This document shows positions 1-58,004 of a DNA stretch of 64,000 bases, piece after piece. The first letter of the stretch is position 1. Each line of letters begins with the position of its first letter. The translations under genes were made by a program, and so were the position numbers. The DNA lies in NCBI GenBank assembly GCA_026770705.1, contig JANJGN010000034.1, positions 3,224,001 through 3,288,000 on the forward strand. The letters run 5' to 3'. The notes beneath the pieces are model-generated. The model was not told the DNA's origin. It saw nothing but the letters and a program-made list of their open reading frames with translations, and did no database searches. The DNA comes from Isurus oxyrinchus. Lineage: Eukaryota.

Positions 1-227
1 CTACAATTACTCATATTGGAGAGAGACAAGATCATATGTTCAATGATATATCAGTATATTCCTGGCTTTTCGTTGTTTGCAGCAAATGTGATATGCAATC
101 AATTGAGACATCAGTAGCATTGCCTATATTTCAGAATATTTGGAAAACAAGCATTTGACGCAGAACAGATAGACATTAGCCAAAAAAAGCACTAAAGTAC
201 AATGAAAGACAGGCCTGTTCCACTCAC

Positions 228-263
228 CGGCAATCTCCAAAGCAGCTTTTAGCTCATCTAAAC
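228..263 (-). CDS. Microexon E13 (36 nt, phase 1-1, class A); peptide SLDELKAALEIA
   Basis: Minus strand reads ttccgcttcctgcattctcttag|GTTTAGATGAGCTAAAAGCTGCTTTGGAGATTGCCG|gtgagt. An in-frame alternative AG 6 nt downstream would give a 30-nt exon. Confidence 0.85.
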
Positions 264-1099
264 CTAAGAGAATGCAGGAAGCGGAAAATTAACTAAACCA
301 CAGATATTGTCACCACGTTCACCAAAATGAGGGTGAAGGAATTTTCGTCTCTGCAAAGACAGCCTGAGATCTCATAGCTGTATATTACTTAGGTGCATAT
401 TTTGAAGATAATTTAAACCATCGGCACCCTATAATCTCCTAGAGCACGCCTAATGGAAACGTTTCTCAGTCATTGCATCTTCCTAATGAAATCGTTGCTT
501 TTTATCAGGAGGCTTGAATGGGCTGGAAAATGTGCTGCCAAAAAAGGTGACATTCATTATTGCCCCTATCACACGTAAATGAAGCACAGCTAGTTCCTAC
601 ATAGGGACATGCGCAGGTAATTCTTTAAAATGGAAGTTGCTCCGAGTGGGGCACCATCTTCAATCTCACTGCGGTAGTTTGAATTACCCATTTGGAGACA
701 AGCTTTAATTTGCGCTAATTGTCCATTATTAAGTAACTTCCACATAGAAAGCTTGCAAGCCTGTTATTTGCTGACGTTAAAAGCCCTATACTTATTTGGC
801 CAAATTGAATGCGGATGTCGTCACTGTTCTTTGTTTGCAATGCTCAAATTCAAACAAGTATATTATTATCATAATTAACTGATTTAATATTTACATAGAT
901 TTTATTCTAATCATCTTGCTTTTTTATGAATTGGATATGTCAGACTTTTGCAGGTTGTAAATTCAAATGTATTTGAAACATGATTATCCAACAGTTATAT
1001 TGAATCTGAATTTGCGAAGTGAGACACCAGGTGTGTGGTGTTGTAGAACTCGTCCATTGAGAAGGTACAGCGTTCGCTGTTATTGCTTCTCCTTCTTCA

Positions 1100-1405
1100 G
1101 GTACCATGCCAAAAAAAAGGATTTAGTTGACCATGGAGTTACATTGAATTGGCGTAGGATTAAGCTTAGCAGGGCACTGCATTGGTTTGCCGTTGCTTTC
1201 GGCAGTTTGGTTGACCAGAAAACTCTCTCGCTCTTGCTGCTATCTATTGGGTGCAATGGAATGATTTACAGGCCGGTAAGAAACCTGCTAGAAGACGATA
1301 TGAGCGCATCTCCGGTGGATATTAAGTCCTCCAGTGGGACTTGAACCCAGAGCTTCTGGCTGAAAAAATTGTCGAGATTCTACTCTTTGGACCAGCAGAC
1401 CTCCT
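1100..1405 (-). mobile_element. tRNA-derived SINE, family also at 2600-2870 and 44200-44460
   Basis: B-box-like GGGTTCAAGTCCCACT on the minus strand near 1332-1348. An internal AAGAGC..GAGAGTT-like motif is shared by the three copies. Confidence 0.6.
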
Positions 1406-2079
1406 GTACTCTTCGCAATGCTATGAAACTGACTGCAACTTCAGAGGCTCCTGGCATATGTAGGTTACAAGCAAAATGAACATTACTTAGATAGCAACAT
1501 TACTCTAAAAGGTAAAGAGCTCGTCAAAATGTTTCATATGAACAATTTTGAGCGATGGATTGCTATCGATTTGCAGAGCCAATGCCTTCGATATCCGAGG
1601 GCACGGCAAGTGATTACCTGGAAAGGGATCACAGCTACTTCTTTGGAGACCATCAGATTTAATGGTGGGGGACCTCGACACGTTATACTGTTGATACGAT
1701 TAGATAAAAATAGAAGCAGACAAGATCGATGTGATCCGGGTAGCCTTCAGTGGAGTTCTGTGGATGGACGGTCATGTGATAAATGTGCCAATGTCAGCAG
1801 ACAAACCCGGAACGATGAGGATGGATAATGTACCTTTTTGGCCTCATGGACGGAAGGTGTTGGGTTTGCAGAGGGGGGCGGTGAGTGGTGTTAAACACAG
1901 AATTAAAGGAAAGAAAATGGGCACAACTTTGTTGGCAACACCACATTTAAGTGTTTTGCAGTGAAAAAGGAGTTTGGATTCGAGCCAATGTTTGATAAGA
2001 ACGTTACGCCCAATCATTGGCTATGAGAGCAGAGTTGAAGCCATCATAGTTACATTCATAACCTCTACAATTTAATAAC

Positions 2080-2560
2080 ACACTTATTGCACACTTGGCT
2101 TCCTACATCTTCCCTGCATTATTAAAAGAACTGCTGCCCATGGCCCTAATCGAAGCCGTGTGCTTTCCACATTCAGCATTGTTAGCATTGGTTGACATGG
2201 TCTTCAGACAATCAGGACCTTGACTTTAGTATGTTTTCTATGATTTATTTTTCTTATGAATCTACTCTATGTCGTCGACCCTCCTTCTCTATGTATCCTT
2301 CTCTGCTCGTACAACCCCTACGGAGTTTTCTGTGCTCCCCTAATTTCAGACTCCTAAGCAATGCAAACGTTAATTGCTTCCACATTGCTTTCCATGCTGT
2401 CGGCTGTCGAAAGTATTAGCGCACAGATGTGGTACCATCATCTCTTTGACTGAACCTGTCGCTGAAAAATGTTCATCGGAATTGCTTTGGTGCGTTCCTT
2501 TATATAATCGTGCTGCATGAATATAATTCATGTTTGTTGCAACCTGTGAATTTGTACTTA
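2080..2560 (+). mobile_element. Decayed L2-type LINE 3' end
   Basis: Resembles the L2 tail I recall (ctgtgctcccctaatttcagactcct...ttaattgc). A similar segment lies at 53560-53740. Confidence 0.45.
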
Positions 2561-2599
2561 CGAAGTTGTCGTCAGTTTCAAAGGGGTACGGGATGAACA

Positions 2600-2870
2600 G
2601 CGGGACTTATGCTGCAATAGGTATGGCCTCTACTTTTCAGCCAGAACCTCCAGTTTCAATTCCCACTCCAGGACTTAAGAGCCATGGACGCTGCACTCCT
2701 CATGTGGTAAACAGACATATCATCAGCCCGCAAATCCGCCAGATACACCTGATGGTAGGCGGGAAGAGCAGGAACGTTTTCAGGTGAGCCATATTCCCAA
2801 AACTTGCAGCAAACCCAATGCAGTACTACGCTGAGTACAATCATGTACCAAAACAATCTAAGTCCATTGT
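2600..2870 (+). mobile_element. tRNA-derived SINE copy
   Basis: Head cagccagaacctccagtttcaattcccactccaggactt, colinear with the copies at 1100-1405 (-) and 44200-44460 (+). Confidence 0.6.
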
Positions 2871-3900
2871 CAAAAAGCCTTTTTTGGGTGAGAGGGGAGA
2901 TTTTTGAGACTGGAACTATAACGGGGACAGCACCATAGCTTGAAGAGAGAGATAGAGAATAGTTAACCATATCAGCTAACACGTTGACCATTTTCCTAGT
3001 CTGTATTTAAATGAACAATTTGATGTCATGAAGAACAACATGGAGAGAGAGGGAAAAAAAGAAGTTAGAAGTGAAAACAGTGATGTTGATTCAAGTTCAG
3101 GGCTAAAGCTATTTGGAGACGTTCAGGGCTCTCTTGACACCTAAACATATACTTTAGCCAGGATACTAGTGGAATACAACAGCACAGTATTATGGCAGCT
3201 GACCAGCTGGTGCTGATTCCAATGACGAATAAATTAAAGAGTTAATCAGTCTTCTTATTGGAAGGCTGGACTGATGGGATATGACAGATAGGTTTATGGT
3301 GACAGTTTATCGCAGGAAAGAAGCTTAATCTAGTGGTTAATTTTTAATTCCAAGATGATATTTTAATAATGGAATTTTCTTTTTCCAGAAAGATCGTAGG
3401 TGACTGTGTATCATGTGATACATTTAGATCTGGCTGGAATGAATGTACCATATCCCTTTTAGACTGTGTGCCTTGAATTTTGTACAGCACAGATGAGTTT
3501 CACTACACCTGACAGAGTGCCAGGGTGAGTCATGATTTCACTGGGCTCTAGCATATCACAGGTGGACATGGGGTCGCAGTTGGAATCAGTCTCTACAGGC
3601 AAGTATGAAGAAAGGCCAAAACACTGTGTTATGTAAATGAATAGAGGGAACAGTTCTTATCCTGGGGGAGACGCAGAACAAAACAAAACAGGTTTGTGGC
3701 CCGGAAATGGGTGTTGGGGACTTTGATGCAACGCGTTGAATACAGATGGCATTACCTATGGCTGCTAACTGCGCCTTGCGATATTACACGAGATGTTAGT
3801 CTGAATTGGCTGGACATGAATATTTGCTGTAGAGTTTACGTGGAGGAGGTTCATTAGGGAGGGAAAAATGGTAAGTTGAAATCATGGCGACAATTATTAA
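2870..3900 (-). mobile_element. Decayed L2 LINE ORF2 fragment
   Basis: The translation LADMVNYSLS...GAVP..VP resembles the L2 pre-RT motif LADIVNxSLSSGxVP. The extent beyond ~3000 is uncertain. Confidence 0.45.
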
Positions 3901-4059
3901 GATTTGGTCTTGCACTAAATGCTCCACCACAGTGAGTGCTGTCGATCTCATTCCCCACTACAGCAACAACCCCATCACCCCAGCACACGATGGCCGCACC
4001 TGCTCACCCATGCCACGACCACCACGCCTTTGGGTTCATCAACATGACATTGCATTAGC

Positions 4060-4410
4060 AGGTCACGGGATGTCCACTGCAGAACGCTAGTCTAATGTGC
4101 AAACCTGGGTTCAAATCGCACATCGACAGCAGGTGGAATTTATATTCAATTAATAAACCTGTATTTGAAAGCTAATTTCAGGAGTGCCGACCATAACAGC
4201 TTTCCTGTTTTGTTAAAAATAATAATAATGCTGTTGACTAATTTCGTCGAGGAAGGGAAATCGGCTACTCTTACCTGATCTGGCAGATATGTGACTCCAC
4301 ACCCACAAGAACGTGATTGACTCTGATTTTCCCGCTGACCTCAGTTCAATGTCAATTAGGGATCACAATGAACGATAATGATGCTCACGTATCATGAAAC
4401 AACTTTTTTA
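4060..4410 (+). mobile_element. tRNA-derived SINE with LINE-like tail (family also at 12270-12580, 50880-51260; related minus copies 27900-28150, 63170-63420)
   Basis: B box gggttcaaatc, then gcaggtggaattt...cttacctg.tc.g...atgtgactcca...caattaggga. Colinear with 50880-51260. Confidence 0.75.
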
Positions 4411-7191
4411 AATTTCTGATGCATGTGTATTCATTGATCAATAAACGATTATTTGAAATATTTAAACTAAATTTTATACAGATTTAAAAAAATATAAGTA
4501 AATATTTCAGCTTCTGATTTCACCCTACGTATATGTAGTAATCTTTATTTCCGTCGATGTATTGTTTTATTATGTGTCTGCCGCCTTTGTCGGCTGTGAA
4601 ATCCATTGAGACGAGCTGCTTGAAGAACTTGTTGATATAACTGGAGCTAGACGTGGGGAAATTCCCAGAGAATAACTTTGGGATCAGTTGAGGTATAGGA
4701 GAATAGGGTTGGTGGGATATGTCACCCCAGATAGAGCGTGAAATTTCCCAGTGAGATAGATTAGGCTGTTGACACACCATTTCAATAAATATCAATTGTT
4801 TAAATTCTTAGTTTAGTGTCTAAGTACACATATAGATGAGATCAACATTATTGCATCTCCTAAAAAATGTCTACCCTTTACCTTTAAATTTGTAAAATGT
4901 TTTCTTTCGAATGTATCCACTGTTATCATTCCCTCCATTGTCTTTACAATGAACGAAATGTGTTTATCCAGAATTTATGGCGTAGCGACCTGAAGCCTTG
5001 CCCACTGCTGCCTGCTGTTTTCATCAGTGATCACAAGTGTGCTTGTTAGCGCTGAGGCTGAAGATAAGAATGAATATTTCTTGGTCCGATCCCAACGTCA
5101 TGCCTCTGGTAATTAACTTCATAGTTTGCAACTAAGTCTGTGGTGAGTGCCAGACGTTGTACCACTGCTTTTGAAACCCCGGCAAAATTCATTATGTTCA
5201 TTGTAGTCGATAGGCAATCTGTTTATGGCGACGCTGTAGGTTGTTTTGCACTTAACTTGTTTTTCTTTGACAAAGTCACGCGATATTTTCATCTCTTTAA
5301 TTGACAGGGTGGCTTCAAAACATTTTTCTCCCTTATGAGTTTCAGTTTCTAAAGATGATAGTGTTTACAGGACTTCTACAGTGTACAGAATTTACTTGAG
5401 AGCCAAGCATAAATGAACTTGGACGATGATTTAGTTTAGCAATCCGTGCTTTTTGTATCTTTACCCTGGTCGCTGTCTCTGGGGCTAAATGAAAACCAAA
5501 CGTGAATTTAGCTGTTATCTTTGCATTGTTGTAGTAGAGTAACCATCTGTTAGATAACAGCCACAGTAATTCAACAGTACCAAAATTAGTGAAAGCAAAA
5601 CAGATCCTTAATTACACCAATAGTGATGAAAAAAAATTATTGCATATTAACATTTTCAACAAGTTCCTCTCAATAATGTTGCATTTTTGCGCACACATAA
5701 CCCCACTGCTCTCTTTCAAATGACTTATCGGGACATTGTCCACAACCAGTTTCAAGGGGATTCTTTGTATTAATTGTTTGAAATGAGATAACTTGAAGAT
5801 CTGACTGCTTTTCGAGGTACTACAAGACCATATGATATGATGCGTTAGCGGGGTCGATTGTAAGGCAGGTGGGGAAAAATAAAAATAGACATAAGGACGC
5901 ATCTTCGAAGAAGGCTGTAGGCTATAGAAGGGGCCACATTTGCGAAAGTCGGCAGAATTAGCAAATTCATAACTCTATGCATATATGAATAAATAACGAT
6001 GCTTATATGTACCTGAATCATTGTTACAGAAGTTTCCTGCTAAATAGAACTGCCCTTTCTGTAATATTACCCTGACAATGTACAGGTTAATTTTCCCAAA
6101 AACTAACTGAACAACGTTTGGATGTGGATTGTAGCCGGAAACTATGATAATAAGTGTGATTGTACGTTAAACAGGCAGATTTTATGGTGAAAGTGGAAGA
6201 AAAAACCAGTGACGCTGAACAAGCAGCATCTCATCAGATAGCCACCACGCTGTAGAAATTATGTTGTCCTTTCCAGAAGGGGCGCCAAAGAGTCTCCGGC
6301 CAAGGTGTGCGACTCCCACCTCCAATCCATACGACACTAATTATATAGGGCTATTATTTCTTGCAGACCAATAGACAACAAGATCGTAAAATGATATTCC
6401 TCTTTTAAAAATATTTAGAGAGCAACTAATCTGAAATATTGCCAATGTTTTTACGTGAGCCGCTTTCATTTGAATCGAGCTTTGCAAGGGACAATAGGAA
6501 GAGTGTTGCACCTTTTTTGCCAAGTCAGTGTAGGAGGATTTAGGACCTCAATTGTTCTACTCACCGAATGGGTACAGCACTCAACTGGAGCTCAGAGTGT
6601 CTAATACTTATATTAACGCCAGATAACATAGATGGTTTTACTCATTAATTGCTATAAGCCGGCATTCATAAAGTTAGATAGATTGATCTGAGTGAGGGTT
6701 CGTGTGGAGCAAAAGCACTGGCATTAAGCCATTGGACATAATATCCATTTCTAAACTGTATATAAAGCATATTCTCAGTTAGTCTGAGCTGTAGCTGCTA
6801 CATGTCATTATTCGGCTGTTTTTTGTTCTTATTTATTTTGCTTGGTTCACTGTTGGGTGTGCCATGATCAGGGTATGACAAGAGTTTCAGCATTTCATGT
6901 TCAAAGAAGCGAACAAACAGAACTGAAGCCCTTCAACTCATCGCTTTGCGAGTTTTAACGGGATGATGGTTCAAATTGTCCCTCACTGGCATTTTTCTGG
7001 AATGGTATCAAATTATATAGGTCAATGTTTTTGAGGTGATCATGAATTGGTGCAACTGAATAGTGAAAAATATTTCAGGGGAGTTAACGGCATTCAAAAG
7101 TTGCTTAGCACTCTTGTGCATTTAGATGAGATGGCAGCCTGTCTGGTATTCGAACATGCTAAAGTTCATCATAAGGTATTTTACTACTTAC

Positions 7192-7218
7192 TGCATTTAA
7201 GCTGAAGGTCTTCAAGTT
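7192..7218 (-). CDS. Microexon E12 (27 nt, phase 1-1, class C); peptide ELEDLQLKC
   Basis: Minus strand reads ctaat...gcctttggcgtttag|AACTTGAAGACCTTCAGCTTAAATGCA|gtaagta. Paralog of E8. Confidence 0.9.
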
Positions 7219-8530
7219 CTAAACGCCAAAGGCATGGTAAATGATTAGATACTTGCCGAGCTAAATGCAACGATTGTCTGAATTCCTTTTGTCACCAAAG
7301 AGGCAGGAGAAATAATGCACAATTGATAACTTCTCAATTGAGTCAGCGCAGATGCCAAGATATTGTATTTAGTCAAGACCTCTGCCTGCATTTAGCCCGT
7401 AGCAATCATCTTTGCTTTTGCAAGGAAAAACGTTTTTTTGTCGACCTGCTGCATTATTTGTCAACCCAACAGCTTTGTTCCAAAGTCATTTGTCTATTGT
7501 GGTTTGATATCTTTCTTGAACACTAAAAAACAATAACTGAAGTAAGGCTGAGTTTTTTTTACAGCCTATTTCATCCTCTAGTGACAACAGAGAAGAAACA
7601 TTAAGAAGCACATTGCCTAGGATAGGTTAATTATAAAGGAAACAAAAAGTCGCCGGCTGAATAATCGGTGCTGAATTCGTTTGCACCTACTTTGCACTCT
7701 TTGCTAAAAGGGAAAAGAAAATGCCTCACCAAATCAATGACTGCCAGAACACGAATCTGATATGAAACTGGGAAGATTCGGCCCAGTGATAGGCTGATAT
7801 TATACGCTTTGAGGCAAAATCTCCACCGCCCTGCACAGTGCCTGTGAGTTGAGACTGATAAGCTAAGTGACATTGCCTTTTTCCATCACCACTTGACGAA
7901 GGTCCACTCTTCCTTCTTGTCTATCTGTCGCTTAGATCCTAGGTGCTGTTTACTCACCCATTTTTTGCTTGTTTCTATTTTTCCTCCATAGAATAGTGGT
8001 TATTTGACAATTCACCAGTTATTGTTTGCCCTTTAGTTACACTTCATGCACCTGAATATTGCAGAGATGGGAAGAATGGCTGCTAGTCTCAGAGAACACG
8101 GTCACTTCTATGCTCTCCTTGAAGTTATCCATTATTCCAAGGTGGCGACAATGGTCACTCCTTCACGATTACTCAATAAAACTCTGAGAGCTGCCAATAC
8201 TTGGGAAGAATAATCACAAAACCTCAGTGCTACAGTAAGAAAGCTCACTGCCAGTTTTGTTACAGCGGGCAGAATGCCCCATGAATGACAACTTGGCGAC
8301 AAAGTTTAGGAGATTTCTTTATGCCACAGTTTTGTCTCTGATCGTTAGGATTGCTTGCACGGGTTGGCAAGAACATTTTGCAGAGAGCTCGAGGGATGCA
8401 GTACACCTCACATAGAAAGTACTACAAACAATGGGTCCGTTTTTAATCTTTTCACTTACCCTTTGATTAAAATTGAATGTAAATTTTCGAACTTACATTT
8501 TCAAGTTAAATACCCATTTGAGGCGCATAC

Positions 8531-8557
8531 CTTTTTCCTTGTTACGCAGTCTTTGTT
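8531..8557 (-). CDS. Microexon E11 (27 nt, phase 1-1, class B); peptide EQRLRNKEK
   Basis: Minus strand reads cctctttttctgcacag|AACAAAGACTGCGTAACAAGGAAAAAG|gtatgc. Confidence 0.88.
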
Positions 8558-9061
8558 CTGTGCAGAAAAAGAGGTAAACACTGGTTGAAAATATTAGCGA
8601 ATAGATACATTTTGAGAAGATACCGGCTAGAATTTTAATTGTAGAAATGCATGCCTGACAGAAGGGAAATGAGAGCCTCGTGTAAAGGCGAATCACTCGT
8701 TGTAAGACACCCACCTGATATGTAGTTCCCCGGATTCAACATAAAATATAACAATAGTAACAAAACAAGAGATCGATGGAATTCCACCAATTTCAATGTG
8801 ACTGAATAATTAATGAATTGCTAACCTTTTCCGACAAACGTAAATGCATGCAAACAATTAATTCTCGTTGAAGAGTCGGTGGCAGCCGCTTAGCTGGGTC
8901 AAACGGGTTACCACTGATCCTAGAGGAAGTCCCAACATCTCCATTTCTTGGGCAGCAGGCGAAATTGTCAGTAGCGCCTTGATCCTGAGAATGATCAGAA
9001 AGGTGTATGCATTTTTCATGTAATCAATTAAGTGACGGCTCAGAGAAGCATCTATCGGTGT

Positions 9062-9091
9062 GGGGGGGGGGGGGGGGGGTGGGGGGGGGGG
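9062..9091. repeat. Poly-G tract
   Basis: About 30 nt of G with a single T interruption. Confidence 0.95.
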
Positions 9092-11175
9092 AGTGTCGTT
9101 GCTGAACGTGTTAAGTGACAACAGGTAAATTTCAAAAAAAAACTTTTTTTAACGGCCTTATTCAACCTTCACTAGTTGCATCGAGCACATGGAATCCACC
9201 CTTGTGCCATGGATTGGGGCTTTCCGTCAACACCAATGCAGCAAGCCTCAAGGAAAACAATATCTGCTGGAAATAATAATCAAATTGGACACCCAAAGCA
9301 TCATCAAATAAAGAAACTTTGAGGCTCACCCGAACGTTCCAGAGCGCCTTTCACATTTTCCAGTTCTGAAAGAAATTATCGAAGTCCAAGAATCGTGAGA
9401 ATTTTACATTCAGTGCAACGTTGAGCAGCATAAATCCTCTGCAGAAATACAGTTGTTTGGATAATTGCCCGGCATTCAAGCCAGGATATTGGACTGCTAA
9501 AGGTCACTGGGACCGATTTTGCTCGCATTTTTCACTTTATTCAACAATCTGCTATTTCCTGAAGTTTTGTTGCTGTAGTGATGATTTTCATATTTGACAT
9601 AAATTCACGGATTACAGTTTCACTGTAGTGTATTTTTTTGTCGGCGTTGCTTATGCATGAGTTCTGATTGCTGAACCCGTTTTTTTTAAATTTGATTTTA
9701 GCAGGCCCGGCTTCTGGTTTACTGCACAAAAAAACCCTGCTCTCCCTGACTTAGTCTCCAACATCCCGCCTTTAAATGGCACCTTTGCGTCCACGCTCAC
9801 TGCATTTCAAGCTTTATAGTAAATCTTAGAAGATGAATTTGAAGTCCTTCAGAAGTAATGAGCATTTGGAGGTTCACTGGAAGCGACCATCAATAAACAT
9901 TGATTTCTCACATTCCTACCTCTTAATAATTGCTTCAATGTGAAAAGCTGGCGTTGGGTGTGTCACTTTAATAGTGTTCAGCCGTTATTGACACCATTGC
10001 CTCAAAACATCACTGGACCCGTCGATAAGAGCCACAACACCTCGACTAGCTCCAATACATCACCAGCATCAAAATCCAACTTCCTCCACCACTGCCTTCA
10101 TGATCCTCGAATCCGCAGTCAGTTCCTATTACCCCCCCAAGTCGGAGCATCCAACAACCTCGGGAATATCCCTCAACATGCATCGAATACTCTCCACGCG
10201 CTGACAACTGGCCAATCATCGACTACCCGCCAACCCCGCCCATTTTCTACCATCTTGTCCATCCAACAACAACAGCCCACCGACACTCCCGATAACCATC
10301 CCCCGCCCGTCACTCATCGAGCACACGCTAGCCCACCATACGCCCCCACCGCAAATCCCCCTGTCTCTGAACATATCTAATGTACTTACATGACTCTAGT
10401 TTGCCAAGTTGGAATTTAAACAGAAGGACCTTTAAACATACAGTTTCATGGCAGGAAGCACAGTGAAAATGAAAGGGCGATGCTTTCACTTTTCCCGATG
10501 CTACTGAAAGGACTCGGGGACCAGGTTAGCTGCATGCATCTCACCAGACCCGGGGCGGAAGTCCGGGAGAGAAATGTGTCCATCCCAACCACAATATGTG
10601 AAAAGAGTGGATAGGGAATCCGTCGGTGATTGCCACCCATTGGAGCCCCTGGGCCATCAGGGAAAACATTATATAGCATTTTACGTTAGCTACGAGGGTA
10701 GGCATGATCCATGTCCATGATTATAACTCCATTTGAATAGGAAATATGTCCTCCCCCTACTTGATTGCTTAATACCTTATACTTTGACGGCAAATAAATG
10801 AATTTCAGACATTCAGAGGCCTCATGCGACTGGAGTGTTTGCACCTTTGCAGCTCTGTTGTTAGTTAAGATGGGGTACTGGGGCAATGAATGGATAATTT
10901 TACCCTACTGGTATTCGGAGGAAAAATGGAAAATTGTTCAAGACATGGAAAACCAACAGTGACTTTTAGCTTCCAGTGAAACTAAATATTGGGAATTCAT
11001 TATTATGTACACCAAAAATAGTTTGTCCTGTTATGCATCCCAATAAAACTGGGTTTCTGAGACTCTGATTAATACAATTCCTAATTTCATGAACACATTT
11101 CCTTCAGGAATCTGTAATAATTTACACCTTGCACATTATACATTGTACACCAATTATAACAACTGGCTTTTGTAC

Positions 11176-11202
11176 CTTTGCTGATTTCCTTTGGGTCTGG
11201 CT
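11176..11202 (-). CDS. Microexon E10 (27 nt, phase 1-1); peptide KPDPKEISK (Pro-containing)
   Basis: Minus strand reads ttttaatttatcttgcag|AGCCAGACCCAAAGGAAATCAGCAAAG|gtacaa. Strong acceptor, moderate donor. Confidence 0.65.
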
Positions 11203-11349
11203 CTGCAAGATAAATTAAAATATATGTTATATCTTAGGCTGGGAATTGAATGGAAGAAGACACAAATAGTTCAGGCACCAGAAACAGGTGGTTATATTAT
11301 CGACTATTTTTAGGAATACTGAACGAAATGTTCAAATGTAAAAAATCTC

Positions 11350-11790
11350 TGCTACCGTTCAGTAAGTAGCACTTACACTTCAGAATCAGGAGATTTGGGT
11401 TTCAAATGTTGGTCCAGACACTTGAGCACATTTATTAGGATGGCATTGCACATCTCAGGGAGTGGTATTGGAGATGCTGACCTTCTAGTGAGACGTTAAG
11501 ACAAGCCTCTCTCTGCCACCTCAGGTGTAACATGCAAGATCAGAATGCATTATTCCAAAGAAGAGAAGTGGTACTGTACCGAGGGTGGAGCCCAATATTT
11601 ATGTCTTAAACAATATTATAGAGACAGATTGTCCTGGTTATGTACTGTCGTTTCTAATCGTATCCTTGGGGGAAATTTGCTATCCTGTAATCTACATTAC
11701 AAAAATATTTGCACTTAATTTGGTGTGAGAATATTTGGAACATTTTGGGATCAAAAACGGCAATTTTCTTAAGCCTATTTATCTTCCCTT
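11350..11790 (+). mobile_element. Deu-domain-like (SacSINE1/AmnSINE-type) SINE, decayed; related copies near 22370-22700, 40660-40920 and 58420-58620 (-)
   Basis: tRNA-like head, then the gtgagacgtt...ctctc...aggtg...gaagag...ccaatattta core recognised from memory. gtgagacgtt is shared with the copy at 22484. Confidence 0.55.
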
Positions 11791-12012
11791 TGCTGCTCTG
11801 GACATTGCAGAGTCAATTGAAACAAAAGAAGACATTTTAGAATTCATGTTTATTAGGTTGTTAAGCATGGACTTATGCTTACGGACGTATAATGATGCTG
11901 ATCGATGAAGCATAACAGCAGAAGGGCCATATGTGCGGCAACGAAATGTGATGTAAAGAACCTGTTAGGCCATAAAGACTGTACATTCAGACTATGATCG
12001 TGTGATGCACAC

Positions 12013-12048
12013 TTCTTTGTTGATGAGTTTCGTCTTTCAGCTGGGCCT
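12013..12048 (-). CDS. Candidate microexon E9 (36 nt, phase 1-1); peptide KAQLKDETHQQR
   Basis: Minus strand reads cttaatttcag|AGGCCCAGCTGAAAGACGAAACTCATCAACAAAGAA|gtgtgc. Length, phase and module position fit and the peptide is coil-like, but the donor is weak. Confidence 0.4.
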
Positions 12049-12269
12049 CTGAAATTAAGTGTTGCCCTTTCCATGACGGTGCTCTGCCAGGAATGACCAG
12101 GTGTGAGCCGGGAGATACAAAGTTGGGAGTGGAATTACTAAAGTCATGACAATGCGTGTCGTGAGGTTTAGAAGTGACATTGCACCAAGCGTAGCGTACA
12201 GAAGAGCAATGTTTATCCTAAAGGACCAGTAAACCAGAATTCTGATATAATGCAACTGACACATAAGTA

Positions 12270-12580
12270 AGAATGCCAATATGGCAGCTGGAGAATTAAC
12301 ATTGAATTAATTATATAAATCCGCAATAATGAAGCTGCAATGTTGTCATTTGAGATAACGGGGTATTGTAAATACTCACTTATACCCTTTAGGGAAGGAA
12401 CTCTTCAATTCTCACTCGGTCTGACCAATTTTCCACGACTGAGTCTTATCTGCCCTAAGAATGGGCTAGCGATCCACTCAGTTCTTCGACAAGCAGCTCC
12501 TTCTTAAGACAACTTATGGGCTGGGTAATACATGACGGCTTTACCAGTGACACCCACACCCCGTGAATTAATAATGTTAA
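12270..12580 (+). mobile_element. SINE copy (same family as 4060-4410), 5'-truncated
   Basis: Contains atggcagctggagaatt...cctttagggaagga...gccagtgacacccac-like tail. Confidence 0.65.
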
Positions 12581-13123
12581 TGCACGGCAAACTGTCGGCT
12601 TCCCTGTCACATGAGGAGAGGAGAAATACTTCACTTGACTTATGTTACACCTCTGTGTTCTAGAGATAACCAATGTCCCCCCGTGCACCAGAAGCCATGT
12701 AATTTGACCAACGTGATCCCAATGTGAAGGTCATTTCGTGTCACAGACGAGACGAAATTTATACTTTGCAGTGTCAGAAAGCACGAGGTCTTAAATCGAG
12801 AATTCGTTATGTTGCCCGCCCCCTATTCATTTCCACTTACCTCAATAGAACTGAATATTTTGAGTATTACTTGATCGATTTCAGAAATCTGGAGAGAGCA
12901 TGTTGCCGCACAAAGTAAGCTTCATCAAAAACGTTTGTCTATGCTGAAGGTCACTTTTAACCCTCTAAACCCTCTACTGTGGAGCAACACTGTGGAAGTG
13001 CAGGTCACACAGGATCAACTTGAACGTTGGAAATACTGGTGGCTGAGGGGCTTCTTCCTCTTCTTCATAGGGCCACCGCTACAAAACAGGAGAGAACAGT
13101 TCAGCCAGTGTATTAGTACTTAC

Positions 13124-13150
13124 TGCATTTCAGCTGAAGGTTTTCTAATT
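13124..13150 (-). CDS. Microexon E8 (27 nt, phase 1-1, class C); peptide ELENLQLKC
   Basis: Minus strand reads ttccctctgcag|AATTAGAAAACCTTCAGCTGAAATGCA|gtaagta. 23 of 27 nt are identical to E12. Confidence 0.9.
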
Positions 13151-13829: not shown

Positions 13830-14030
13830 GGAAATTATATAAACGGTGGCAGCGAGAAACAATGTTGACGTTGTGAATCCAATGTGCGTCTTTTACCGAT
13901 GAAGAGTCACGTTGGATTAGGATGGTTACCTCTATTGCTCCTTCCACAGATGCTGGCATACCTGCTGAGTTTTTTTTTTCCAGCATTTTCTGTTTTTTTT
14001 TAAATTTAAGATTTCCATTATCTGCAGTTT
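13830..14030. mobile_element. Penelope-derived short palindromic repeat
   Basis: The arm ccacagatgctggcatacctgctgagttttt..ccagcattttctgttttt is shared with 49830-49900 (inverted), 50520-50590 and 56560-56735. Confidence 0.6.
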
Positions 14031-20318: not shown

Positions 20319-20345
20319 CTTTTTCTTTGTTGCTCAATTGCATGT
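20319..20345 (-). CDS. Microexon E7 (27 nt, phase 1-1, class B); peptide NMQLSNKEK
   Basis: Minus strand reads tatcttttcttgtatcaacacag|ACATGCAATTGAGCAACAAAGAAAAAG|gtttga. The 3' half nearly matches E11 (AACAARGAAAAAG); the donor is weaker. Confidence 0.82.
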
Positions 20346-31229: not shown

Positions 31230-31265
31230 TCAATTCCTTTATTTTCTCCTGCAGGCCTTCTATTT
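31230..31265 (-). CDS. Microexon E6 (36 nt, phase 1-1, class A); peptide KIEGLQEKIKEL
   Basis: Minus strand reads ttttaatttcgttgcag|AAATAGAAGGCCTGCAGGAGAAAATAAAGGAATTGA|gtgagt. Clear a/d hydrophobic pattern I..L...I..L. Confidence 0.88.
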
Positions 31266-32060: not shown

Positions 32061-33879
32061 TTATTTTGCAATTCTTCTTTCTGGCTTCAAGGTCCTTCAC
32101 AATCAATTTGATCAATTTGCTGGCATGATCCTTAGTTTATAATTTTCGCAACCACCTTCTCTCTCATCCAGGGTGAAATTCATGATCTTTCATTCAGTCA
32201 AATTGACCTGTAACTGCTAACATTTTTCTAAATGTGTAAACACGTGCAATTGTTCTTAGAGGGCAGACTGCAACAGCAACAAATATACAAAAAAGTGGAT
32301 ATAGTTTCCAAGCGAAAAAGGAAAGGGGTTCACTTTGGCACGGTACCTTACCAGGCAGTGGGCCGGCAAAAATGAGCTGTATTGAAATTTCTTCGTTTTT
32401 CTAACTGTATCACACCTTAAATGTCAATACCAAGTCTAGGACGGATATTCAACAAGTTCCTGATGAAGCTGCATATTTTGTTTCTTTTTCCTTTTGTTTA
32501 AGATACAAATATTGGTTATAATATTTGGAGAATGCTTCCAGATTTGAAGGAAACACTGTTTAATATCATTTAAACCCACAAGAAAAGCATTAAGGAAAAC
32601 GAATTTAACGGGTGAGTGGAAAGGAAGCACCATCACAACTTAAAAATATACAAATGCCTCAGTGCTTCACAGCCAATTTATGGAATTTATGCTCTTGGTC
32701 CTGTAAAGGAACTGTAGCAACATGACTCTGACTAAGCCAATCGAGGTATCCATCGAATTACAAATTCCACCAACAGTAATTACACCTGGGTGCTGTCCAA
32801 TGAACGGAACTATTGAGGGATTTTACACCAGAAAAGTTTGAACTCGAAATTAACTTAAATTCATGAAATTACATTGAAACACTTAAACATTAAATAAATG
32901 CGTTGATGCATGTTTTTCAAAGAACAAATAAAATGATTAGTGAGCTAATTGGTATGTTTTACCTAGTATATTGCGGTCTGTTTCAATCTCTACAAGAGGC
33001 AAGTCATATAATGAATAAAATAATATTTCAGGATATGATGCGAACAAATACGAAATCATAATCATTCAGAACAGAATGTAAATGTCATTTATGCCATTGT
33101 GAATGTACCACCACTTTGAAAGAGCCATCCGTCTACCCTCTTCGTTCTCAACAGCACTGCATTATTTCATTTCCTTCTCTTTAGATAATTGCATTTAGAA
33201 AGCTCCTATTAATTGCTGATATATCTTTTCAAATAGGGCGTTCCAAATCATTAAAAAACACGCTTTGTAAAATAAAAAAAATGAAGTATTTGCAACAGAT
33301 CACCCTGCCCGAGCGAGAATTTGCCACCAGTTTTCTTTTTTGGACAACCATCTTTTTTTTTATATAGCACTGTTAAAATTCCCATTTGCCATCTGTGTTG
33401 TAAAGAGGAATACTCCGCTGTCACTTTCCCCGTAAACAAAAGCACTTTTAAATGCCACAAGTGAAGCGACTTCCGAACGTGAATATAACTAATTGTATTG
33501 AAAATATGTTTTCTTTTTGGATGATATTTGTGAAGTTATATCATTTACAACTGTGCATTTGCCATAAATACGCGGGCTTTATAAAGTGCACAACGTTAGC
33601 TGATGCTTGGAGGCTTCACTAACTGCGCTCATTAGGCTAAGCTATTAAAGTAAAGATGATTCTATATTTGGACTTCCGGGACTGTTACCTGAGCAATGTA
33701 GATGGGATAAGGATTAAAATATAAATCACAACTTTCTGTAACTTGGAGAATGCCTTTTTGTCTTGACCTAGCACACTGATGTTGGCTCTGGCGCCTCATC
33801 TGCGTGGTTTGTGCACTTTCGCTTCAGTCAAGTAGTTAATGTGGAATTTACCACCGATTCAACATCCAACAGGACATCC

Positions 33880-40517: not shown

Positions 40518-40544
40518 TATTTTTGTGTAGCTTGTCTTCACATT
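40518..40544 (-). CDS. Microexon E5 (27 nt, phase 1-1, class C); peptide ECEDKLHKN
   Basis: Minus strand reads tcttcttatcttcttatag|AATGTGAAGACAAGCTACACAAAAATA|gtaagtactaa. The donor context is identical to that of E8. Confidence 0.85.
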
Positions 40545-43849: not shown

Positions 43850-43876
43850 CTCTGTCTTTATTTTTCAATTGGCGTT
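43850..43876 (-). CDS. Microexon E4 (27 nt, phase 1-1, class B); peptide ERQLKNKDR
   Basis: Minus strand has a T-tract acceptor ending tttag|AACGCCAATTGAAAAATAAAGACAGAG|gtcagt. Paralogous to E7 and E11. Confidence 0.85.
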
Positions 43877-47467: not shown

Positions 47468-47503
47468 CTGTCTCAGCCAATGCATCCTTAGTGTTGATCA
47501 GTT
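47468..47503 (-). CDS. Microexon E3 (36 nt, phase 1-1, class A); peptide ELINTKDALAET
   Basis: Minus strand reads gcttttacag|AACTGATCAACACTAAGGATGCATTGGCTGAGACAG|gtaagc. It keeps the heptad Leu register with E2 and E4. Confidence 0.85.
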
Positions 47504-48582: not shown

Positions 48583-48609
48583 CCGTATCCTTTTCAGTCA
48601 ATGTTTTCT
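48583..48609 (-). CDS. Microexon E2 (27 nt, phase 1-1, class B); peptide EKTLTEKDT
   Basis: Minus strand reads gaattacag|AGAAAACATTGACTGAAAAGGATACGG|gtaagt. Consensus donor; the xxxLxxK[DE]x pattern is shared with E4, E7 and E11. Confidence 0.8.
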
Positions 48610-57968: not shown

Positions 57969-58004
57969 CTGCTTGTTTTTGATTTTCATTTAGCTTTGCT
58001 ATTT
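57969..58004 (-). CDS. Microexon E1 (36 nt, phase 1-1, class A) of unnamed coiled-coil gene; peptide (x)IAKLNENQKQA
   Basis: Minus strand reads ttgttcttttgcag|AAATAGCAAAGCTAAATGAAAATCAAAAACAAGCAG|gtaaga. Strong acceptor and donor, open in phase 1, and the start (ttgcag|AAATAG) is shared with E6. Confidence 0.85.

Follow-up and report, generated by a model that had tools for sequence, protein, structure and literature searches.

Butyrophilins of the BTN3A1 type carry very short heptad exons directly before the terminal B30.2 exon, and in-frame skipping of a heptad exon has been reported for BTN3A (PMC6790196; PMC4046983). In the chicken BG genes the coiled-coil tail is built of many tiny exons of 21 (24) nucleotides (nt), 13-36 per gene, which stand behind an IgV and a membrane exon and are followed by a 3' untranslated region (UTR) exon; their number differs between paralogs through duplication and recombination, and a soluble 'zipper protein' form of the tail is reported to regulate the actin-myosin interaction (PMC4046983). 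TRIM proteins with a B30.2 domain (TRIM21, TRIM7, pyrin) combine a soluble coiled coil with a C-terminal B30.2. The locus analysed here lies in the shark Isurus oxyrinchus, in a window of 64,000 nt (positions 3,224,001-3,288,000 of contig JANJGN010000034.1, assembly GCA_026770705.1; the contig is abbreviated C34, and coordinates without this prefix are window positions). On its minus strand stand two similar 27-nt microexons, E8 and E12, and the whole window is contained in a much longer predicted gene, termed gene B. Quite probably, E8 and E12 arose long ago by duplication of a single likely microexon and have likely been held similar by selection on the encoded peptide, within a predicted 0.72-Mb gene for a rod followed by a B30.2 domain.

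Gene B resembles the butyrophilins in its short heptad exons before a terminal B30.2 (SPRY) exon. It differs from them in scale, with 160-190 exons over 0.7 Mb, whereas butyrophilins have a few heptad exons together with Ig domains and a membrane segment, and its B30.2 falls in a separate clade. None of the 50/50 minus-strand open frames of 75 or more amino acids above gene B (all between the last exon of the upstream paralog and the first rod exon, with frames crossing 10-kb locus borders cut) contained a match to Ig, RING or B-box, nor did any of 59 open frames between the head-to-head neighbours; whole-genome PRY and V-set searches, in which the best 150 candidates were scored, are uninformative on local absence. 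As in BG, the coiled coil would be made from many tiny exons. Gene B differs from BG in its 27/36-nt exons (calls of 21 nt being 5/192), in having five times as many of them and in its B30.2 end, although a neighbouring plus-strand paralog does use 21-nt exons. The differences from the TRIM proteins are the missing RING and B-box matches in the upstream frames and a rod that is built of microexons and exceeds the coiled coil of TRIM proteins in length about tenfold. Chondrichthyan rod-plus-SPRY models (XP_038671249.1, XP_042192744.1, XP_069775385.1 of an electric ray and XP_055510696.1 of a skate) share the domain order of gene B, and their B30.2 domains belong with its own to one divergent 172-residue clade (100/100). 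These models are paralogs rather than orthologs of gene B and are named TRIM39-like, A33-like or nuclear-pore anchor-like. On the features tested, the predicted gene falls outside the butyrophilins, BG and TRIM, and its family is not described in the literature searched, most subscription papers and bioRxiv supplements lying outside that coverage.

Substitutions in E8, E12 and the duplicated blocks

Both 27-mers were found on the minus strand exactly as quoted in the preliminary description, with its four differences in 27 nt; AG precedes and GTAAGTA follows each of them, and phase 1 is the sole frame open in both. The codons differ as TTA/CTT (Leu, two bases), AAC/GAC (Asn/Asp) and CTG/CTT (Leu). 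The count of three silent Leu changes and one Asn/Asp change given in that description stands if the shortest synonymous path is followed, with three synonymous changes and one replacement (post hoc P = 0.025, or 0.045 with a transition weight of 2), and falls when the two TTA-CTT paths are averaged by the method of Nei and Gojobori (2:2, not significant). The synonymous path is favoured because sister copies carry TTG and CTG at that Leu codon. Among the five closest copies of the Cys-ending type, where the first Leu codon reads TTA, CTT, CTT, TTG and CTG, third positions account for 4/7 variable columns. By itself, the E8/E12 pair is weak evidence of selection.

The purifying selection in the predicted frame that had been claimed from the pair is supported instead by an adjoining duplication that contains E12. 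Self-alignment revealed a 34.2-kb tandem duplication beginning at position 7916 and a 72-kb duplication further down, with intron divergences of 12.4% and 11.3%, respectively; the upper copy of the former runs on for 26 kb below the window and the lower copy follows directly. For the nine exon pairs called in both copies of the 34-kb block, the proportion of synonymous sites that differ (pS) is 0.110 (7.0/63.5), like the introns (0.124), and the proportion of replacement sites that differ (pN) is 0.028 (5.0/179.5; P = 4e-6 against the intron rate, Fisher P = 0.015), four to five times below both pS and the intron rate. The pN/pS ratio is 0.25 in the predicted frame and 1.5 and 3.5 in the other two, and third positions hold 8/13 differences; when four calls present in one copy only (dead or false) are included, the ratio is 0.41 (P = 0.058). 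Moreover, four hand-picked old pairs with unalignable flanks, E8/E12 among them, carry 8-9 synonymous against 3-4 replacement changes (Fisher P of 0.002 or less). Judged from these comparisons, purifying selection on the peptide appears clear around E8/E12 and weaker elsewhere, real but moderate and patchy. A synonymous bias in a duplicated exon is ordinary; its value here lies in being a sign, read from sequence only, that a gene missed by the pipelines is alive, gene B being probably unannotated.

The predicted rod and its terminal B30.2 exon

Over the 1.47 Mb of C34 that were read, short phase-1 exons run along the minus strand from about 3.975 to 2.713 Mb, and a plus-strand run begins head to head with them at 4.01 Mb. 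The exon that follows the last microexon, used as a query, retrieved five close B30.2 exons on the contig, at 2.709, 3.474, 4.817, 6.396 and 7.497 Mb, so the minus-strand run comprises two genes. The window is inside the lower of these, gene B, which is one of five B30.2 paralogs on the contig. An exon model trained solely on the two neighbouring paralogs, with seed splice matrices of approximately textbook values that include exon-edge bases, gave 247 raw calls on the minus strand of gene B versus 8 on the plus strand at a score of 8, and 184 versus 0 at a score of 12. After removal of overlaps 192 calls remained, 178 of them of 27 nt (106) or 36 nt (72). Calls were picked by splice signals and length without amino-acid information, and a phase-1 stop occurs in 8/191 of them, the other frames having 115 and 89; among plus-strand control calls a phase-1 stop occurs in 14/24. 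As predicted, gene B spans about 0.72 Mb and its phase-1 exons alternate between 36 and 27 nt, which together give 21 residues or three heptads.

The rod set was restricted to 163 exons (score of at least 12, six Cys-type exons added, one dropped), which cover 718 kb and encode 1,639 codons without a stop. Lys, Glu and Leu make up 50% of this predicted rod, its hydrophobic power peaks at a period of 3.5 residues, and Glu or Asp occupies 133/162 junction codons. Adjacent 36-36 exon pairs number 4, against 22 expected (0/5000 shuffles). Positions 1, 4 and 8 of the 36-nt exons are hydrophobic in 82-92%; in ordinary 27-nt exons the hydrophobic position is 3. The focal exons, of the Cys type, have Leu, Leu and Cys at 1, 4 and 8 (Leu-x-x-Leu-x-x-x-Cys), which equals the start of a 36-type exon, and similar peptides were present in skate and catshark models (2/6 proteins checked). 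In gene B, the exon called next after 4/7 Cys-type exons is a 27-nt one with much Pro, Gly, Ser or Asp, and after a fifth comes the probably dead copy at 6481; in such a Cys-type and hinge exon pair a helical segment may end and give way to a hinge. Within an intron, 84-90 kb below the window, a degenerate tetranucleotide-type repeat of about 6 kb gives rise to long spurious open frames.

The terminal exon of gene B matches the Pfam SPRY model (E = 4.6e-15), the PRY model itself giving no match, and its best match in the PDB is the B30.2 of BTN3A1 (E = 2e-26). Its orthologs in Scyliorhinus torazame and Chiloscyllium punctatum, 68-69% identical, are annotated as bare exons, and the databases searched with it returned only bare orthologous exons and unrelated multi-B30.2 proteins. 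Automatically named RefSeq models of rod plus SPRY without Ig or RING exist in catshark, electric ray, skate and chimaera, the full ones being XP_038671249.1 (catshark, 945 residues) and XP_042192744.1 (chimaera, 1,697 residues). RefSeq isoforms of these relatives differ by internal blocks of nine residues (catshark, electric ray, chimaera), or of 6, 7 or 16, which suggests indirectly, through paralogs in other species, that such microexons are spliced and skipped. Chordate clusters of SPRY proteins of 1,277-1,802 residues with coiled-coil-type automatic names are present in the ESM Atlas and are taken as leads only.

The acceptor of the hinge exon at 6481-6455 reads AA here and AG in its 34.2-kb duplicate, and another exon, about 50 kb below the window, has lost its AG in the lower duplicate copy only. 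A related organism, compared through a 793-base contig with 45 differences from this genome, carries the AG-forming base at 6482 in 4/4 DNA runs; because of this, the loss at 6481 would be recent, unless it is a variant or an assembly error in this genome. In the same organism 18/32 differences listed match the base of the duplicate and part of the stretch is represented by two different contigs, and therefore the 34.2-kb duplication is suggested to predate the split between the two species. At 7192-7218 it has no difference among the rows listed (40/62), with 1.5 expected, which was not counted as evidence.

If spliced as predicted, the 160-190 phase-1 exons would form one transcript encoding a coiled-coil rod, about 1,640 or more residues long, with a B30.2 end. 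A coiled coil rises 0.148 nm per residue, and the rod would be about 240 nm long. Cys-type exons would place Leu, Leu and Cys at three core positions and, with the following Pro/Gly exon, end a rod segment at a hinge; the product could be a soluble oligomeric spacer with paired B30.2 binding heads, like a butyrophilin tail minus the receptor parts. All exons being symmetric, block duplication could lengthen the rod and splice-site loss could shorten it with the frame intact. We lean, by a little, towards the wider proposal that gene B represents a novel cartilaginous-fish family in which hundreds of frame-neutral 27/36-nt exons, spread over megabase genes, encode rods of 1,500-2,000 or more residues. 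The conserved Cys-plus-hinge pairs, including those of E8/E12, would be joints of the rod, and its length and joint spacing would evolve by block duplication and by single-base loss of splice sites, in one case (6481) after a close relative had split off. If spliced as predicted, gene B and its neighbours would be among the most exon-rich vertebrate genes and would offer a natural series for microexon recognition over a 0.7-Mb transcript and for exon birth and death without frame cost, with the heptad-exon tail of butyrophilins and BG stretched to a rod hundreds of nanometres long.

Opposing evidence and other explanations

Several points weigh against a gene of this kind maintained by selection on its peptide. 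In the 72-kb duplication pN/pS is 0.80 over 20 pairs (P = 0.54) and 1.03 over all 27 calls, and the differences are distributed 13/12/12 over the codon positions, with no third-position excess. Under automatic pairing the ratio is 0.62 (P = 0.12) for all 30 recent pairs of gene B and 0.80 (P = 0.36) for 10 old pairs of paralog A, the upper gene of the minus-strand run; the latter set was chosen by nucleotide identity, a choice that biases towards low pS. In the exon model E8 and E12 reach scores of 7.2-7.3, under the cut of 8, because both end in A, and they were added to the exon set by hand. None of three ATG candidates for the first coding exon of gene B is convincing, and no transcript of the gene was seen. 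For the terminal exon no RNA data set was listed as containing it, and contigs from 4/8 presumed-RNA runs covered the flanking repeat only, which speaks neither for nor against expression. As to butyrophilin descent, a 27-row tree of B30.2 sequences (midpoint root, sparse sampling) separates 15 rows of this family from 12 BTN/TRIM rows with a 100/100 split, so that the family forms its own clade apart from the sampled butyrophilin and TRIM rows. The function suggested for gene B is drawn by analogy only.

Some of these values would be obtained if the exons were real but kept similar mainly by constraint on splicing (edges, enhancers), with peptide selection weak or relaxed and the rod largely a drifting length filler. 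This explanation fits the 72-kb block, where the exons lack a third-position excess and yet diverge half as much as introns (pN of 0.059 in the 20 pairs, P = 1e-4); it agrees as well with the pN/pS of 0.6-0.8 over the larger pair sets and with the duplicates that have lost splice sites without harm to the frame, at 6481 and 50 kb below the window. However, constraint at the DNA level would not lead one to expect five copies with such varied first Leu codons, nor a pS equal to the intron rate beside a pN four to five times lower, in phase 1 only, as in the 34-kb block; even in the 72-kb block pS is not significantly under the intron rate (P = 0.12). It is an unlikely explanation. Within the 72-kb duplication, 251-415 kb below the window, some exons carry several replacement changes each, so that selection there may be relaxed or positive.

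A less probable arrangement is that the array is split among several shorter transcripts or ends in a membrane-anchored form; instead of one soluble rod plus B30.2, it would then be several genes or the tail of a receptor. This would agree with the lack of an RNA link, with the database models of relatives, which are mostly fragments and in two cases start with hydrophobic stretches, and with a short hydrophobic stretch at C34:3,440,870, 10 kb above the first rod exon, that has a strong donor, a poor acceptor and no upstream in-frame ATG. Against it, each array ends in a single SPRY exon on the same strand, after a Trp-Lys 27-nt exon also found in two paralogs, the frames above gene B hold no Ig, RING or B-box match, and full rod-plus-SPRY models of both lengths given above exist.

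The flanks of E8 and E12 were described beforehand as unalignable beyond the donor, and this was confirmed: blastn of 3 kb against 3 kb (±1.5 kb) aligned a single 40-nt core (35/40, E = 8e-9), and the scores of the 300-nt flanks are within a null built from other exons, 12% and 95% of whose values are equally high. Over all same-strand position pairs of the window a 23/27 match is expected 0.34 times by chance; the 27-mer match alone is not above chance, unlike the 40-nt match that takes in both splice signals. A degenerate 27-mer pattern allowing two mismatches hits three sites in the 4.98-Gb genome, all at this locus (reversed control, 0), the third being 34,235 bases below 7218 and one synonymous base from E12 in introns that differ by 12.4%; in the fetched region the exon type has nine members, all AG/GT-edged. 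Hence neither of the outcomes that the preliminary description had named as refuting it, flanks aligning as in an ordinary repeat or a 27-mer dispersed genome-wide in a transposable-element family, was found, and origin from a transposon or dispersed repeat is ruled out by the three locus-only copies and the unalignable flanks of the pair. Although the bare match lies within the chance expectation, an alignment that spans both splice signals, with copies confined to the locus, leaves next to no room for chance, an ordinary repeat or a transposon as its source.

Features of the window and neighbouring genes

A 60-nt exon call at 14021 was dropped by eye as the poly-T tail of a repeat; the features kept are listed below.

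Table 1. Predicted features of the Isurus oxyrinchus window (window positions unless prefixed with C34).
Feature	Position	Strand	Remarks
Predicted gene B, containing the whole window	C34 ~3,430,467 down to 2,708,632	-	Terminal B30.2 exon at C34:2,709,152
Upper copy of the 34.2-kb tandem duplication, in-window end	1..7916	.	Aligned blocks 77-87% identity, offset 34.2-34.7 kb
36-nt microexon	228..263	-	Duplicate: 2 synonymous changes
Copy of hinge exon after E12, 27 nt	6455..6481	-	Acceptor AA not AG; likely dead or skipped
Microexon E12, Cys-ending type, 27 nt, phase 1	7192..7218	-	Peptide LEDLQLKC; first exon of upper 34.2-kb duplicate
27-nt microexon	8531..8557	-	Old paralog: 0 synonymous, 2 replacement changes
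36-nt microexon	9330..9365	-	Old paralog outside window: 4 synonymous, 0 replacement changes; flanks unalignable
Pro-rich hinge microexon after E8, 27 nt	11176..11202	-	Score 16.8
Microexon E8, Cys-ending type, 27 nt, phase 1	13124..13150	-	Peptide LENLQLKC; ag/gtaagt edges; exon-model score 7.3
27-nt microexon	20319..20345	-	Score 17.6
36-nt microexon	31230..31265	-	Score 13.9
27-nt microexon	32963..32989	-	Score 12.3
27-nt microexon	40518..40544	-	Score 14.1
27-nt microexon	43850..43876	-	Score 18.4
36-nt microexon	47468..47503	-	Score 21.9
27-nt microexon	48583..48609	-	Score 20.1
36-nt microexon	57969..58004	-	Score 31.4

Paralog A stands in tandem with gene B on the minus strand (C34:3,474,122-3,975,000), with 129 exon calls and a terminal B30.2 that is 72% identical to catshark XP_038668997.1. 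The head-to-head paralog on the plus strand (C34:4,005,537 and 4,010,266-4,489,000) has an ATG exon in strong context that ends in phase 1 and lacks a signal peptide; exons of 36/27 nt come next and exons of 21 nt and 48 nt further on, and the B30.2 at 4.817 Mb is its likely end. A basking-shark protein shares 93% identity with one of the paralogs. Near-identical B30.2 ends, 1.1 Mb apart and with an identical last microexon, occur at C34:6,395,977 and 7,496,600; from their sequences this pair appears to stem from the recent duplication of the whole gene or of a large segment. On another contig, C21, the B30.2 clade has two further members, at 89.72 and 91.35 Mb, within a cluster of more than 100 PRY-bearing exons (C21:83-118 Mb). 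In the catfish Hemibagrus, KAK3511214.1 has long coiled-coil repeats, seemingly of 21 residues, before a PRY-SPRY and is a possible bony-fish counterpart. Below the cluster, at C34:2.45 and 2.38 Mb, there are single-exon GPCR-like open frames.

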